From an uncultured Candidatus Saccharibacteria bacterium (GTDB lineage Bacteria > Patescibacteriota > Minisyncoccia > Phycocordibacterales > JAKFXT01), in NCBI GenBank assembly GCA_964385825.1, contig CAYLPX010000002.1:1281-65280 (forward strand): DNA of 64,000 bases. Reading direction: 5' to 3'. Shown here one piece after another: positions 11,898 to 61,729 of the stretch. Made by a program: the position numbers and the translations under genes. The notes beneath the pieces are model-generated. The model was given only the letters and a program-made list of their open reading frames with translations. It was not told the origin of the DNA and made no database searches. Position 1 is the first letter of the stretch. Each line of letters opens with the position of its first letter.

Positions 11898-11925
11898 CCC
11901 CGCCGGCGCATGCGCGCCGGCGGGG
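11898..11925. repeat. perfect 28 bp GC palindrome
   Basis: ccccgccggcgcatgcgcgccggcgggg, sitting at the 3' end of the minus-strand island ORF. Confidence 0.85.
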
Positions 11926-11941
11926 TGTTCCGATGGCACCG

Positions 11942-12373
11942 CTACGAATGAGGTGCCGAACTGGTGTTGAAGAGTTCGGGGTCCGGCCAATCAAGCTTCG
12001 CCCCATCCAAAAGCGGCAAGGCCGCCTGGAAAAGATGGGCGATGTTGAAACACGCCGACTGGACGTCTTTTCCTGCCGTGTCGTCCTGCGCATCCTTCTG
12101 CAGAACGCGTATGAACATCTCCCCCACACGTATCCGACAGCGCCCCTCCTCACCTCGGCTCAAAACGCCTTGCCGAAAGGAAGCGGTGAGGATCTGGAGC
12201 AGTGTCTTGATTTCGTCACGATTCGGCCACGCTGAAGACTGAGCCCCAACCGATACCCTCTTCGTGAGTTGCTCAAGACGGTCCAGAATGAGCTCAACCA
12301 GAGTGTCCGCGACGCTCTTGATCGGCCGCTGCACGTACGCAACAGCCTCATTTATTTCAGGGTTTTCGTGCAC
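11942..12373 (-). CDS. hypothetical protein on GC-rich island
   Basis: 143 aa ORF with a GTG start preceded by GGAGGTG. High GC. The overlapping alternative ORFs on both strands make the coding call uncertain. Confidence 0.4.
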   Translation of the reverse strand: MHENPEINEAVAYVQRPIKSVADTLVELILDRLEQLTKRVSVGAQSSAWPNRDEIKTLLQILTASFRQGVLSRGEEGRCRIRVGEMFIRVLQKDAQDDTAGKDVQSACFNIAHLFQAALPLLDGAKLDWPDPELFNTSSAPHS

Positions 12374-12435
12374 GGGGCACCTCCAAGAAAAAAGGGTTAT
12401 ACAGCTCGCTTGAGCTTATACTCCACTAGTAAAAA

Positions 12436-12476
12436 GTCAAACGCCGCGGGCCTCCCGCGGCGTTTGACTTTTTGTT
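12436..12476. terminator. bidirectional intrinsic terminator immediately downstream of rplB
   Basis: gtcaaacgccgcgggcctcccgcggcgtttgac, flanked by aaaaa and tttttgttt. Confidence 0.75.
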
Positions 12477-12490
12477 TAATTTTTTCCGAA

Positions 12491-13333
12491 TTATCGCTTC
12501 TTTCCAACCTTGCGGCGAGAAACGATAAGGCGATTTGAGTATTTCTTTGGAGTTCGTGTCTTCTGACCCTTTCCAGTTGGGCGTCCCCACTTACTCTTAG
12601 CGCGGCGGAGTCCTCTTCCCTGACGTCCTTCACCTCCTCCATGTGGGTGATCAACTGGGTTCATAGCAGATCCGCGAACTGTTGGGCGAATACCCTTCCA
12701 GCGATTACGTCCTGCTTTACCAATCTTCTCGAGATGGTGTTCGTCATTAGATACTTCTCCAACTGATGCCCATGCAGTGTTGTGTACCTTACGAACTTCA
12801 GTTGATGGCATCTTAAGAAGGGTGTAGTCACCATCTTGCGCGATAACCTCAGCTGAGTTTCCGGCAGAGCGGCAAAGCTTAGCTCCACCTTCTGGCTTAA
12901 TTTCAATATTATAAACAAGCGTACCTACTGGCATAGCACCGAGCGGAAGACGGTTAGCAGCTGTAATAGGAGCCTTCTCTGCTGTTACAATCTCCTGTCC
13001 TACTACCACACTCTTTGGAGCCAACAGGTAACGCTTGTCACCATCCTTGTACCCAACAAGTGCAATAAAGCCTGTGCGGTTTGGGTCGTACTCAATAGTC
13101 AAAACCTTTCCCGGAACATTAAGTTTGTTCATCTTGAAATCAATAAGACGATACTGACGCTTGTGTCCTCCTCCCTTATGGCGAGTGGTGATGCGCCCAG
13201 CATTGTTGCGTCCTGATCCGCGGCGAAAACCCGTAAGGAGTGCCTTGTGCGGCTTATCCCCTGAAAGGAGATCACGATATGGAATCGTGGTCATGTTACG
13301 GCGTGATGGACTTGTTGGTCGGTACGTTTTCAT
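12491..13333 (-). CDS. rplB: 50S ribosomal protein L2
   Basis: 280 aa. The L2 signature (GGGEGRQGRG ... HPHGGGEG) is evident. Confidence 0.9.
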   Translation of the reverse strand: MKTYRPTSPSRRNMTTIPYRDLLSGDKPHKALLTGFRRGSGRNNAGRITTRHKGGGHKRQYRLIDFKMNKLNVPGKVLTIEYDPNRTGFIALVGYKDGDKRYLLAPKSVVVGQEIVTAEKAPITAANRLPLGAMPVGTLVYNIEIKPEGGAKLCRSAGNSAEVIAQDGDYTLLKMPSTEVRKVHNTAWASVGEVSNDEHHLEKIGKAGRNRWKGIRPTVRGSAMNPVDHPHGGGEGRQGRGLRRAKSKWGRPTGKGQKTRTPKKYSNRLIVSRRKVGKKR

Positions 13334-13347
13334 AGCTCTTTAATTAT

Positions 13348-13698
13348 CTATACAAATTCAATCTTATCTCCGTCCTTAAGATATACGTAGGCCTTGCGAG
13401 AAGCAGCGGTCTTACCACGCTTGCCACGAGCAACCACACGCTTAGCGGGAGTCTTCACAATAGCGATCTTAAGTGGGTGTACTTTGTAGAGTTTAAACAC
13501 TGCCTCCTCAACAGCCCCCTTAGTAGTTCCCTGTGGAATATCAAAGGTGTAGACGTTGCGTTCAGCAAGTACCGTTGCCTTCTCAGTGATACGAGGAATC
13601 ATACGAAAAGTAGCTTGGTTTACACCTGACTTTGCCTTAGTAGTAGCTTCTACTACTGCAGCTGATCCTTCTTCTTTTTTATTGGAGAAAATAGCCAT
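13348..13698 (-). CDS. rplW: 50S ribosomal protein L23
   Basis: 116 aa; operon position between rplD and rplB. Confidence 0.85.
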   Translation of the reverse strand: MAIFSNKKEEGSAAVVEATTKAKSGVNQATFRMIPRITEKATVLAERNVYTFDIPQGTTKGAVEEAVFKLYKVHPLKIAIVKTPAKRVVARGKRGKTAASRKAYVYLKDGDKIEFV

Positions 13699-13700
13699 AC

Positions 13701-60093: not shown

Positions 60094-60366
60094 ATGAACA
60101 AAGCATCACTCGTTGAAGCTGTGCAAGGAGCACTTGGAGGAACAAAAGTTCAAGCAGAAACTGCTGTTGAAACTTTGATTGAAACTATTGTTAAAGCTTT
60201 GAAAGGTGGCAACGAAGTTTCTATTGCAGGACTTGGTATCTTTTCAGTAAAGATGCGTGAGGCTCGCCAAGCTCGTAATCCACGAACTGGTGAGACACTT
60301 CAAGTCAAAGCAATGCGCGTACCAAAGTTCCGCGCAGCCAAAGCTCTCAAAGACGCTGTTAAGTAA
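60094..60366 (+). CDS. hup: DNA-binding protein HU
   Basis: 90 aa; IAGLGIFSVKMREARQARNPRTGETLQV; the HU/IHF family arm. Confidence 0.85.
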   Translation: MNKASLVEAVQGALGGTKVQAETAVETLIETIVKALKGGNEVSIAGLGIFSVKMREARQARNPRTGETLQVKAMRVPKFRAAKALKDAVK

Positions 60367-60386
60367 TTTTTCTCTCTATGAAAAAA

Positions 60387-60427
60387 ACACAAAGCTCCGA
60401 AATAGACGCGGAGCTTTGTGTTTTTTA
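60387..60427. terminator. bidirectional terminator between hup and the convergent hypothetical gene
   Basis: acacaaagctccgaaatagacgcggagctttgtgt, flanked by aaaaaa and tttttt. Confidence 0.7.
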
Positions 60428-60447
60428 TAAGAAACTATTCGCGCTGT

Positions 60448-61437
60448 TTAAAGATTACTGGCAAAAGGAGGGTGATGTTCGTAGCCTATTGGGGAAAAGG
60501 TTATTTGAGTGAACTGTGAAAATACTTCAAGAGGAATCTTTTTATCAGGAAAAACATTTGGATTATGTACGAATATTACTTCTTTGGCGCTTGCGCTTTG
60601 CAAAACGGCATTTATAACATCTCTACCAAAGTAGATAATGCCACTTATTTCCTTAAAGTCATCTCTAGAAAAGAGATTTACGTCTATTGAATTAGTTCGC
60701 TGAGAATTTAAAATACTTTCCCTGGTTGTGTGAAAAGCTGGACCCAGGGTACCATCACTTTTAATTGGTAAATGTACTGCAGGACTAATTCCCCCCAAGG
60801 CCTCTAGTATTAATGCCTCTGGTGACGAAGCCCTGTCTCCATCTATATCCCCTGCATTTAATGCGATTACATAATAATCCCTTCCCCCCACTATAGTTTT
60901 ATGTTTACTAAAATAATTACTTAACTTATCCATAAGCACACTAGTTATACGTCTCACCTTTGGGTGATTGGCTTCGTCGAAAGATCTGTTACGTGACACT
61001 ATAGTCCCTGACGGAACCCCAGCAAGCATATCTGATATAGTTTCAACTGCGTTAGGGCCCTCCCCTTTTCCCGCACTAACAGCTTCAATAAACAAATTTC
61101 TATCTCCGATAGAAATCTTAAAATCAGGATTTGGGTCCTTTTTTGATTGTGCAATGATATTGAAAGACCCTTTCTTCAATAAATCAAACAAATACACTTC
61201 CCACGCTCTGTTAGTAAAATGAACTTGAAACTCAGTTATAAAATTAGTATCAGCAAAAGGCTTGTACTTACTCCAAATAGCATCAAAAAAAATTTTAACC
61301 GCGTGCCAATCAGGCCGCATGTGCACATTAAGATAAGCTACGTCAAGATTTGAATACTTCTTTATTAAAAACAGAAGTTCCTGATTATTTTGAGCGGGCT
61401 CAGGGGGTAGGGGGAAAAGTGTTGACATAGATAACAA
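60448..61437 (-). CDS. hypothetical protein (no recognisable family), AT-rich, adjacent to tRNA-Gly
   Basis: 329 aa soluble protein with no signal peptide. About 37% GC. Flanked by a tRNA and GC palindromes. Confidence 0.5.
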   Translation of the reverse strand: MLSMSTLFPLPPEPAQNNQELLFLIKKYSNLDVAYLNVHMRPDWHAVKIFFDAIWSKYKPFADTNFITEFQVHFTNRAWEVYLFDLLKKGSFNIIAQSKKDPNPDFKISIGDRNLFIEAVSAGKGEGPNAVETISDMLAGVPSGTIVSRNRSFDEANHPKVRRITSVLMDKLSNYFSKHKTIVGGRDYYVIALNAGDIDGDRASSPEALILEALGGISPAVHLPIKSDGTLGPAFHTTRESILNSQRTNSIDVNLFSRDDFKEISGIIYFGRDVINAVLQSASAKEVIFVHNPNVFPDKKIPLEVFSQFTQITFSPIGYEHHPPFASNL

Positions 61438-61588
61438 TTTTCAAAAATTGAACGAAGATTGATAGAGACATTAGAAGGAGAATCGGTCACAAATATTTTA
61501 CTCGCCGTCGCTCGCAAAATTTCGCTACCCCGCCTCGCTTTTGGTTTTTACTAAAACCAAGCTTCGCTTCGCTCCGCGCGCTGCGGCT

Positions 61589-61648
61589 TTCGATTCTCCC
61601 ATCCCGCATGAAGAAACTCCGTTTCGAGTGCGGGATGGGAGAATCGAA
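61589..61648. repeat. 20 bp perfect inverted repeat: the 3' end of tRNA-Gly and its inverted copy, 20 nt apart
   Basis: ttcgattctcccatcccgca [tgaagaaactccgtttcgag] tgcgggatgggagaatcgaa. The right arm is the T-arm plus acceptor 3' strand of the tRNA. Confidence 0.9.
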
Positions 61649-61699
61649 CTCCCGACATCAGTTTGGAAAACTGAAGTTATACCATTTAACTAATCCCGC
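61629..61699 (-). tRNA. tRNA-Gly (anticodon UCC)
   Basis: Manual fold of the minus strand: GCGGGAT TA GTTA AATGGTA TAAC T TCAGT TTTCCAA ACTGA TGTC GGGAG TTCGATT CTCCC ATCCCGC A. It has a 7 bp acceptor, GG in the D-loop, a TTCGA T-loop and anticodon TCC. CCA is not encoded. Confidence 0.85.
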
Positions 61700-61708
61700 C
61701 TATGTTTG

Positions 61709-61729
61709 CCCTGCCTGCCGGCAGGCAGG
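61709..61729. repeat. perfect 20 bp GC palindrome upstream of tRNA-Gly
   Basis: cctgcctgccggcaggcagg. Confidence 0.85.

Follow-up and report, generated by a model that had tools for sequence, protein, structure and literature searches.

The stretch of DNA analysed here raises a specific question: what are the GC-rich palindromes that recur between its genes? The window, a 64-kb stretch of a Patescibacteria MAG, has a GC content of 44.4% and a non-coding share of 11%. The original prediction listed four palindromes (here 1–4) and two related stems (here 15136 and 7016), described the four as sharing a GCCGGC-centred design alien to an AT-rich background, and proposed that the hairpins are either terminators travelling with inserted cassettes or REP/MITE-like elements that mobilize them; the background is in fact only moderately AT-rich. 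Here, we argue that palindromes 1, 2 and 3 and the 15136 and 7016 stems are, with a probability of roughly 0.8, independent Rho-independent (intrinsic) transcription terminators, and that palindrome 4 is a separate case.

A population of hairpins at gene ends

All six palindromes were found within about 0–2 nt of their predicted positions: palindromes 1 and 3 and the 15136 stem lay where they had been placed, palindrome 4 was 1 nt off (61710) and the stem given as 7019 is really at 7016 (Table 1). As hairpins, they greatly exceed chance expectation. With a stem of at least 8, a loop of at most 8 and at least six G:C pairs, 21 perfect GC-rich inverted repeats were observed in the window, against 0.53 ± 0.71 (maximum 3) expected from 40 dinucleotide shuffles. 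Non-coding DNA wholly contains 20 of the 21, in keeping with the intergenic placement that had been described, but palindrome 3 covers the end of comEC. Likewise, 20 of the 21 lie 0–49 nt 3' of a stop codon, the recJ hairpin being counted among them; the exception is palindrome 4.

Five of the six listed palindromes (1, 2, 3, 15136 and 7016) lie 11–39 nt 3' of a stop codon. The listed stems span 10–21 bp, with folding energies from −13.9 (palindrome 4) to −38.5 kcal/mol (palindrome 2); for the five post-stop palindromes the energies are about −20 to −38 kcal/mol, and these have tails with 4–7 T in 8 or T-tracts within the stem. Equally GC-rich hairpins follow at least 13 ordinary genes elsewhere in the window, a pattern that had been named beforehand as refuting the original proposal. 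Rfam searches at the gathering threshold and with a cutoff of E ≤ 1 produced no meaningful match to any of the palindromes, and each palindrome is single-copy in the window and all fetched loci.

Table 1. Positions of hairpins, ORFs and neighbouring features in the window (dG in kcal/mol)
Feature	Position	Strand	Description
G141	6579..7004	+	141-aa ORF, GC3 0.66; between rpsN and rplE, orientation opposite to the operon
7016 stem	7016..7041	+	candidate G141 terminator; 11-bp all-GC stem, dG −26.0, tail ACUAUUUUUU
Candidate A189 terminator	11727..11752	+	comparison hairpin; 31 nt past the stop, tail 7/8 T; without GCCGGC
Palindrome 1	11898..11925	-	candidate B143 terminator; 12-bp all-GC stem, loop GCAU, dG −29.8
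B143	11942..12373	-	143-aa ORFan, GC 0.57, GC3 0.66, GGAGGTG upstream; between rplB and rpsS
15136 stem	15136..15158	-	candidate F104 terminator; 10-bp stem, dG −20.7; 18 nt 3' of the F104 stop
F104	15177..15491	-	104-aa ORF between rpsJ and rplC
Candidate E139 terminator	15940..15959	+	comparison hairpin; 12 nt past the stop; without GCCGGC
Palindrome 2	36057..36101	+	candidate rpmB terminator; 21-bp stem, A-tract/T-tract arms, dG −38.5
Candidate comparison terminator	36643..36666	+	common to C139 (+) and a convergent MBL-domain gene (-); without GCCGGC
D71	38268..38483	+	71-aa GC-rich ORF, GC3 0.65–0.66; between sodA and comEC
Palindrome 3	38497..38520	+	12-bp palindrome (38498–38519 in shorter form); candidate D71 terminator; tail UUUUCUUUU
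recJ hairpin	41040..41069		post-stop hairpin
tRNA-Gly(UCC)	61628..61699	-	
Palindrome 4	61710..61729	.	20-nt perfect palindrome; dG −13.9

The five post-stop palindromes and their relatives

Palindrome 1 lies 16 nt 3' of the B143 stop and was flagged on the minus strand in the terminator scan; its tail, AUUUGCAU, is weak (4/8 T). Both the palindrome and B143 are missing from the sister locus L007, and the idea of terminators that travel with their cassettes stands to this extent; it fails for palindrome 2, which would terminate rpmB, a housekeeping gene, and for palindrome 4, which is not at a gene end. The 15136 stem also has 4/8 T immediately past it. Owing to the poor U tails of palindrome 1 and the 15136 stem, the efficiency of termination at these two sites is uncertain. 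L007 retains the 15136 helix, with one double change from G:C to A:T and one change from G:C to G:T, and encodes a homologue of F104 (48% identity over 82 aa); the nucleotide alignment with this locus resumes exactly at the E139 hairpin. The 7016 stem, 11 nt 3' of the G141 stop, has a tail with 5/8 T and was flagged by the terminator scan.

Palindrome 2 was likewise flagged by the scan and lies 39 nt 3' of the rpmB stop, with its T tract inside the extended stem. Its core occupies 36066–36092, and the position 36068 given for it originally is that of the first GCCGGC. A promoter-like TTGACT-16-TAAAGT sequence (36106–36133) of ORF C139 lies directly downstream. At the site of palindrome 2 the sister genomes carry an unrelated hairpin, AAAACCCCTCCCTCGC TTCG GCGAGGGAGGGGTTTT. 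Palindrome 3, flagged by the scan as well, is 13 nt 3' of the D71 stop, has a tail with 7/8 T, and probably also terminates sodA–D71. It overlaps the convergent comEC gene, encoding its stop and last ~7 codons. In the sister loci L089, L092, L094 and L096 its stem is identical and the loop AATT is replaced by AAGT or AAGC; D71 and its sister orthologue are 32–34% identical. The replacement at the site of palindrome 2, the compensated 15136 helix, the variable loop of palindrome 3 and the tracking of palindrome 1 with its ORF fit elements that are selected for structure and free in sequence.

Palindrome 4 beside tRNA-Gly

Palindrome 4 sits between the divergently oriented tRNA-Gly(UCC) and protease genes, 10 nt upstream of the tRNA and within a ~50-nt stretch of 67% GC. 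It has no T tail on either strand (1/8 T), and no ORF ends upstream of it. By position it is not a terminator, and none of the terminator criteria applies to it. In the closer-looking relative L136 the GC-rich stretch is absent and a short CCCTA-N4-TAGGG hairpin is found instead; this comparison was reached via the protease homologue, and exact look-ups of the HU and ClpP proteins gave the same strain only. Palindrome 4 forms a stable hairpin within the GC-rich sequence 5' of tRNA-Gly and probably serves as a leader or an insulator. The acceptor/T-arm helix of the tRNA is mimicked by a structured, conserved element located next to tRNA-Gly.

The GCCGGC hexamer

A shared GCCGGC-centred design was not borne out. 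The hexamer is central only in palindrome 4; palindromes 1–3 have one hexamer per arm, as must follow for a self-complementary sequence such as GCCGGC, whose presence in one arm entails a copy in the other. It occurs 14 times in the window, against 8.3 ± 3.1 expected (4 of 100 shuffles reach 14), and the four hairpins supply seven of these occurrences. Among the 21 hairpins CCCCGC is found in more (six) than GCCGGC, which occurs in four, as do CCCGCC and CCGCCG; when the hairpin arms were shuffled, some G/C-only hexamer was common to at least four hairpins in 12% of trials. The palindromes differ in length, loop and flanks, and the longest stretches shared between them are 7–9 nt (CGCCGGC in palindromes 1 and 3, CTGCCGGCA in palindromes 2 and 4). 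Across 520 kb of loci from related Patescibacteria, GCCGGC is present in one of 67 hairpins, namely the orthologue of palindrome 3. GCCGGC-bearing hairpins are therefore commoner here (4/21) than in the relatives (Fisher one-sided p = 0.011). The contrast was drawn post hoc, and its significance would be lost on correcting for the ~36 G/C hexamers that are possible, yet it is not nothing. No 8–10-mer was found to be over-represented, leaving the idea of an uptake signal unsupported, and restriction-site avoidance is not evident either, as GCCGGC is not depleted in the window. That several hairpins share GCCGGC follows from their stems being made of G and C; it is a weak coincidence and not a family signature.

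The GC-rich accessory ORFs

The small GC-rich ORFs A189, B143, C139 and D71 have GC3 values of 0.65–0.86, compared with 0.31–0.42 for the host (genome ~0.37). Each has a promoter-like site and a putative terminator, is flanked by conserved genes and in many cases is oriented against them. Palindromes 1 and 3 and the 7016 and 15136 stems all lie 11–18 nt past the stops of small accessory ORFs, so that the proposed role as terminators of GC-rich inserts is largely sustained for these four but not for palindromes 2 and 4. The sister species has most of these ORF units at identical sites, and between relatives a given inter-gene gap differs in the ORFs it contains. The nearest genome is that of the sister, from which synonymous sites are saturated (dS about 1–2); high GC3 persists in the two species despite this saturation, and the proteins are only 32–38% identical.

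Ten candidate ORFs from the GC islands, scanned against Pfam and PHROGs, could be assigned to no family. The homologue search for A189 found only itself, as did that for B143 among 5.8 billion proteins, with no viral relative; an exhaustive HMMER search with C139 found only itself and its sister orthologue. Searches of viral contigs with A189 and B143 were empty, the exact sequences of palindromes 1 and 2 have no copy in 2.9 million viral contigs, and a megablast of window positions 11000–16000 against phage records, bearing on a phage origin, gave no match. A full-text literature search on the interruption of ribosomal-protein operons in members of the Candidate Phyla Radiation yielded nothing relevant.

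Alternative explanations

A dispersed REP- or MITE-like family of palindromes, mobilized by a hairpin-recognizing transposase, could have brought in the GC-rich cassettes. The palindromes are indeed GC-rich and intergenic, the nearest relatives lack three of the four (1, 2 and 4), and GCCGGC-bearing hairpins are somewhat enriched; with synonymous sites this saturated, however, lineage-specific intergenic sequence is expected anyway. Known REP/BIME elements with their RAYT are similarly short, GC-rich and intergenic palindromes, but those described here are single-copy with just 7–9 nt in common, have no conserved sequence or GTAG-type head, and themselves make up the whole element (20–45 nt). 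Pfam scans and precomputed Pfam calls for the main ORFs of the window revealed no Y1_Tnp/RAYT, IS200, transposase or integrase domain. The indel junction of palindrome 1 relative to the sister, the sole comparable junction, shows no terminal repeats or target duplications by eye, and gene ends fully explain the positions. We therefore abandon the mobility proposal as scarcely credible. The reading of the hairpins as attC-type recombination sites delimiting exchangeable gene cassettes fares just as badly: as attC sites do, they follow the 3' ends of ORFs that are short and promoter-proximal, and the ORFs in the gaps differ between relatives, yet they are perfect palindromes of 20–28 nt in whose sequences neither the imperfect 57–141-nt architecture with extrahelical bases nor the GTTRRRY core is seen. 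Moreover, the window holds no integron integrase, attI or cassette array, and its cassettes are scattered, in both orientations, each with its own promoter-like region.

The palindromes might instead be bound by proteins, as operators of dimeric regulators or targets of NaeI/NgoMIV-type (GCCGGC) restriction–modification, with incidental hairpin potential. Their perfect dyad symmetry would suit this, and palindrome 4, between divergent tRNA-Gly and protease genes, is in a possible place for an operator; for that palindrome alone we regard binding as a genuine if minority possibility. For the set as a whole it is very improbable, because the palindromes have no half-site in common other than the hexamer, GCCGGC shows neither avoidance nor strong enrichment, five of the six lie behind stop codons and not in promoter regions, and the different hairpin of the sister at the site of palindrome 2 conserves structure and not a binding sequence. 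Uptake sequences offer another comparison: inverted pairs of the Neisseria DUS and Haemophilus USS double as terminators. Here too a short motif lies in both terminator arms, and the organism encodes ComEC and type IV pilus genes, but a 6-mer is too short for an uptake signal.

In their properties the hairpins come closest to the known class of intrinsic terminators, including bidirectional ones with A-tracts and T-tracts: a GC-rich stem-loop 11–39 nt past the stop, in palindromes 2 and 3 and the 7016 stem a U-rich tail or flanking A/T tracts, one element per transcription unit, and structure that is kept while the sequence turns over. They differ in the weak U tails of palindrome 1 and the 15136 stem and in the position of palindrome 4 away from a gene end, and they are known here from sequence. 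In the proposed terminator mechanism, a G:C hairpin of very high stability would form in the nascent RNA shortly beyond the stop codon, in most cases with a U-rich tail behind it. RNA polymerase would then release the transcript. About 20 such hairpins would close nearly every transcription unit in the window. Palindrome 2 would end rpmB; palindromes 1 and 3 and the 15136 and 7016 stems would end small lineage-restricted accessory ORFs, seen as self-contained promoter–ORF–terminator units that occupy gaps within the ribosomal-protein cluster or lie beside comEC, which palindrome 3 would also serve from the convergent side. That termination actually takes place at these hairpins is what we infer from their sequences, and the all-GC stems of palindrome 1, 7016 and 15136 may reflect a foreign (high-GC) origin of the preceding ORFs.

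Implications

In this Patescibacteria lineage, inserted accessory genes that each carry a putative stop signal would divide the S10–spc ribosomal-protein cluster, which is normally contiguous, into several transcription units. Beyond annotation the hairpins matter little, and a false lead is removed: the window gives no support for a hairpin-based mobile repeat. A broader reading is that the all-GC hairpins (palindromes 1 and 3, 7016, 15136, and those at 11727 and 36643) are the 3' ends of undescribed moron-like accessory-gene units in Patescibacteria, short ORFans that sit in gaps within the ribosomal-protein cluster and bring a promoter and a terminator of their own. The morons of lambdoid phages are autonomous promoter–ORF–terminator units of deviant base composition between conserved genes. 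A189, B143, C139 and D71 resemble them in lying between conserved genes, in having a promoter-like site and a putative terminator, and in their deviant GC3; in contrast, their host site is the ribosomal-protein cluster of a bacterial chromosome and not a prophage, no phage genes lie nearby, no viral homologues were found, and most units are shared with the sister species. We consider this reading unlikely; if true, the combination of persistently high GC3 and divergent proteins would call either for recurrent replacement, at fixed sites, out of a GC-rich donor pool or for some local process that maintains GC, and the hairpin would be transferred with its unit. Of greater value as leads are the ORFans, which evolve fast, are foreign in composition and occupy conserved positions, and the structured element beside tRNA-Gly.

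GC-rich hairpins and the GCCGGC motif

All six palindromes exist, within 0-2 nt of the positions in the original prediction. Perfect GC-rich hairpins number 21 in the window, against 0.53 ± 0.71 in dinucleotide shuffles, and 20 of them lie wholly within its non-coding 11%. The GCCGGC core proposed to unite four of the palindromes is a much weaker theme than claimed: the hexamer is present in palindromes 1-4, but it is central in palindrome 4 only, and in palindromes 1-3 it is placed in each arm, being duplicated across the arms because it is self-complementary. GCCGGC occurs 14 times in the window versus 8.3 ± 3.1 expected, half of these occurrences coming from the four hairpins. 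Several hexamers recur among the 21 hairpins (CCCCGC in six; CCCGCC, CCGCCG and GCCGGC in four each), and after arm shuffling at least four hairpins shared some G/C-only hexamer in 12% of trials. Beyond the hexamer, the only shared sequences are CGCCGGC in palindromes 1 and 3 and CTGCCGGCA in palindromes 2 and 4. In 520 kb of related loci, GCCGGC is carried by one of 67 hairpins, the orthologue of palindrome 3; the contrast with 4 of 21 in the window (Fisher p = 0.011) is post hoc, fails correction for the possible G/C hexamers and deserves little weight. GCCGGC does not mark these palindromes as a family.

Positions of the palindromes, small ORFs and neighbouring features
Feature	Position	Strand	Context
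Palindrome 1	~11898		16 nt from stop of B143 (11942-12373, -)
Palindrome 2	36057-36101		39 nt from stop of rpmB (35775-36017, +)
Palindrome 3	38497-38520		13 nt from stop of D71 (38268-38483, +)
Palindrome 4	61710-61729		10 nt upstream of tRNA-Gly(UCC)
15136 stem	15136		18 nt from stop of F104 (15177-15491, -)
7016 stem	7016		11 nt from stop of G141 (6579-7004, +)
A189	11126-11695	+	small ORF
C139	36174-36593	+	small ORF
rplB	12491-13333	-	S10-spc cluster
rpsJ	16043-16414	-	S10-spc cluster
fusA	30932-33064	-	after tuf
tRNA-Gly(UCC)	61628-61699	-	
tRNA-Gly-linked element	61465-61608	-	immediately 3' of tRNA-Gly
329-aa ORFan	60448-61437	-	between HU and the element
83-nt block	11800-11882		between A189 and B143
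Nearly invariant stretch	~14985-15135	-	upstream of rplC, between it and F104 terminator
23S-like stretch	43266-43347	-	between pgk and HIT-family gene
ComEC, DUF4131+Competence part	38495-40021	-	
ComEC, metallo-beta-lactamase part	36667-37548	-	

Palindromes at gene ends

Judged from sequence, the palindromes other than palindrome 4 are predicted to be ordinary intrinsic terminators. Each follows closely behind a stop codon and is on the same strand as the gene that precedes it, with folding energies of -20 to -38 kcal/mol. The tails of palindrome 3 and the 7016 stem are UUUUCUUUU and ACUAUUUUUU, respectively; A- and T-tracts lengthen the stem of palindrome 2 to 21 bp, and the tails at palindrome 1 (AUUUGCAU) and the 15136 stem are weaker. 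A consensus terminator scan independently lists palindromes 1, 2 and 3 and the 7016 stem. The same hairpin architecture ends rplE, rplB, rpsJ, fusA, nusA, rny, secY, recJ and both giant fn3 proteins, as well as the small ORFs A189 (at 11727), E139 (15940) and C139 (36643); thus, the palindromes belong to the general terminator population of the genome. Host-gene terminators are mostly of the AAAA-CCCCTCCC...GGGAGGGG-TTTT type, and those behind the GC-rich ORFs are shorter, with stems entirely of G/C.

A terminator hairpin also follows an 82-nt match to bacterial 23S rRNA 2130-2211 (the L1-stalk region; 53.8 bits, E = 3e-13), which stands alone in a gap of ~250 nt and may be an L1-binding mimic RNA.

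Structures beside tRNA-Gly

Palindrome 4, ~87 nt from a divergently transcribed protease gene, lacks a T tail in either orientation, and no ORF ends near it. It forms a strong local hairpin adjoining a second, imperfect one, and may be a tRNA-leader or insulator structure, or a binding site.

On the other side of the tRNA lies a conserved element of ~130-150 nt, found in at least six Patescibacteria genomes (also in loci L129, L117, L134, L128 and L137, with diverged forms in L119/L124/L131, L127 and L120) and tandemly repeated in L129 and L117. Its layout is 5'-GCGGGATGGGAGAATCG-AAAGCCGGAGC-[variable hairpin]-GCGAGGCGGGGTCGMGAG-[variable hairpin]-ACTTGTGAC-CGATTCTCC(CATCCCGCAC)-3'. The T loop through the 3' end of tRNA-Gly is copied at the element's 3' end, and the opposite, 5' end of the element carries the reverse complement of this copy, so that the two would form a helix that reproduces the stacked acceptor and T stems. 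The structure predicted by RNAalifold is a three-way junction; compensatory changes affect 8 of 22 pairs when six copies are aligned and 12 of 34 with five copies, and G:U pairs favour the tRNA strand. No Rfam match, viral match or nearby integrase was found; the element represents one of two things: a new structured RNA containing a mimic of the tRNA-Gly minihelix, or else a miniature integrative element or att scar. The adjacent 329-aa ORFan has no Pfam match, and its region resembles a small islet beside the tRNA, since HU directly follows tRNA-Gly in L118 and L119.

Turnover among relatives and the question of mobility

The closest available genome, CAZIPS010000006 (loci L007, L089, L092, L094 and L096), served for comparison; its L2 protein is 94% identical, yet synonymous sites are saturated (dS ~1-2). 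After its rpmB, a completely different hairpin, AAAACCCCTCCCTCGC-TTCG-GCGAGGGAGGGGTTTT, occupies the site of palindrome 2, ahead of a promoter-like region that is conserved between the two genomes. Palindrome 3 keeps an identical stem with its AATT loop changed to AAGT or AAGC, and in both species the hairpin encodes the comEC C-terminus. In the 15136 stem, one pair has changed at both positions, from G:C to A:T, and another from G:C to G:U, with the helix retained. Palindrome 1 and B143 are both absent; instead, 69 nt lead from the rplB terminator to the 83-nt block, 95% conserved. Locus L136, from a relative whose adjacent protease is 73% identical, lacks the ~50-nt, 67% GC stretch holding palindrome 4; a short hairpin, CCCTA-N4-TAGGG, stands in its place. 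Such turnover is as expected if selection were to act on structure and position, not sequence.

The alternative that the palindromes are REP/MITE-like elements mediating mobility is not supported. They are single-copy, no further copy of any being found in the window or the 520 kb of related loci; no 8-10-mers are over-represented, palindromes 1 and 2 were not found in a viral-contig collection, and the main ORFs of the window contain no transposase, RAYT or integrase domain.

Three other features are of note. The AT-rich, single-copy 83-nt block (95% identity versus ~80% for neighbouring coding DNA) may be a promoter, leader or small RNA. Some 100 nt of the stretch upstream of rplC (TTTGCATTTTTTCTAGGGTCGTGTAATATGCC...) are almost invariant between the two species and probably represent the promoter and regulatory leader of the rplC-rplB unit. 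The two parts of the split ComEC are separated by sodA (+) and D71 (+), identically in the sister species.

Small GC-rich ORFs in a broken ribosomal-protein cluster

The window derives from an uncultured, Paceibacteria/Nomurabacteria-like member of the Patescibacteria, its best genome matches being MAGs labelled Saccharibacteria or Paceibacterota. Overall GC is 44.4%, with islands at 11101-12400, 15001-16000, 36101-36800 and 38301-38600 (300-nt windows, at least 53% GC). Assembly chimerism does not account for the GC-rich stretches, because the L2 protein has exact matches on ENA contig ERZ4216102 NODE_40 and in several independent Logan and JGI assemblies. The S10-spc cluster runs on the minus strand (secY, rplB, rpsJ, tuf, then fusA), and small ORFs occupy the gaps that break it up. 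Because the same gaps hold 0 to 6.4 kb of insertion in more distant relatives, they are hot spots for accessory genes. Inserted genes split the S10-spc/str cluster at 6295-7104, 10861-12490, 14969-16042 and 17652-30931; the 13 kb between tuf and fusA encode two giant surface proteins (fn3/PG_binding; 1175 and 2831 aa), and nucleotide alignment with sister locus L007 skips ~18211-22221.

The supposed inserted cassettes are genuine small genes. Coding periodicity (GC3 0.65-0.86 versus GC2 ~0.49) is seen in A189, C139 and D71, which also carry Shine-Dalgarno sequences. These three are not recent insertions, since each has an orthologue at the corresponding site in the sister species. Protein identity to the orthologues is 32-38% (77-96% for flanking proteins), with dN/dS ~0.9 for C139. 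Their GC3, compared with 0.31-0.42 in housekeeping genes, stays high in both species despite saturated housekeeping synonymous sites; homologues beyond the two species were not found. Functionally, the units resemble phage morons, small ORF units with their own promoter, ORF, terminator and deviant composition. The view that the palindromes are terminators travelling with the cassettes is thus partly right, in that the moron-like units own their terminators, but the palindromes are part of a general population that also serves ordinary genes. The palindromes themselves are of low interest; the GC-rich ORFans and the tRNA-Gly-linked element merit separate attention.
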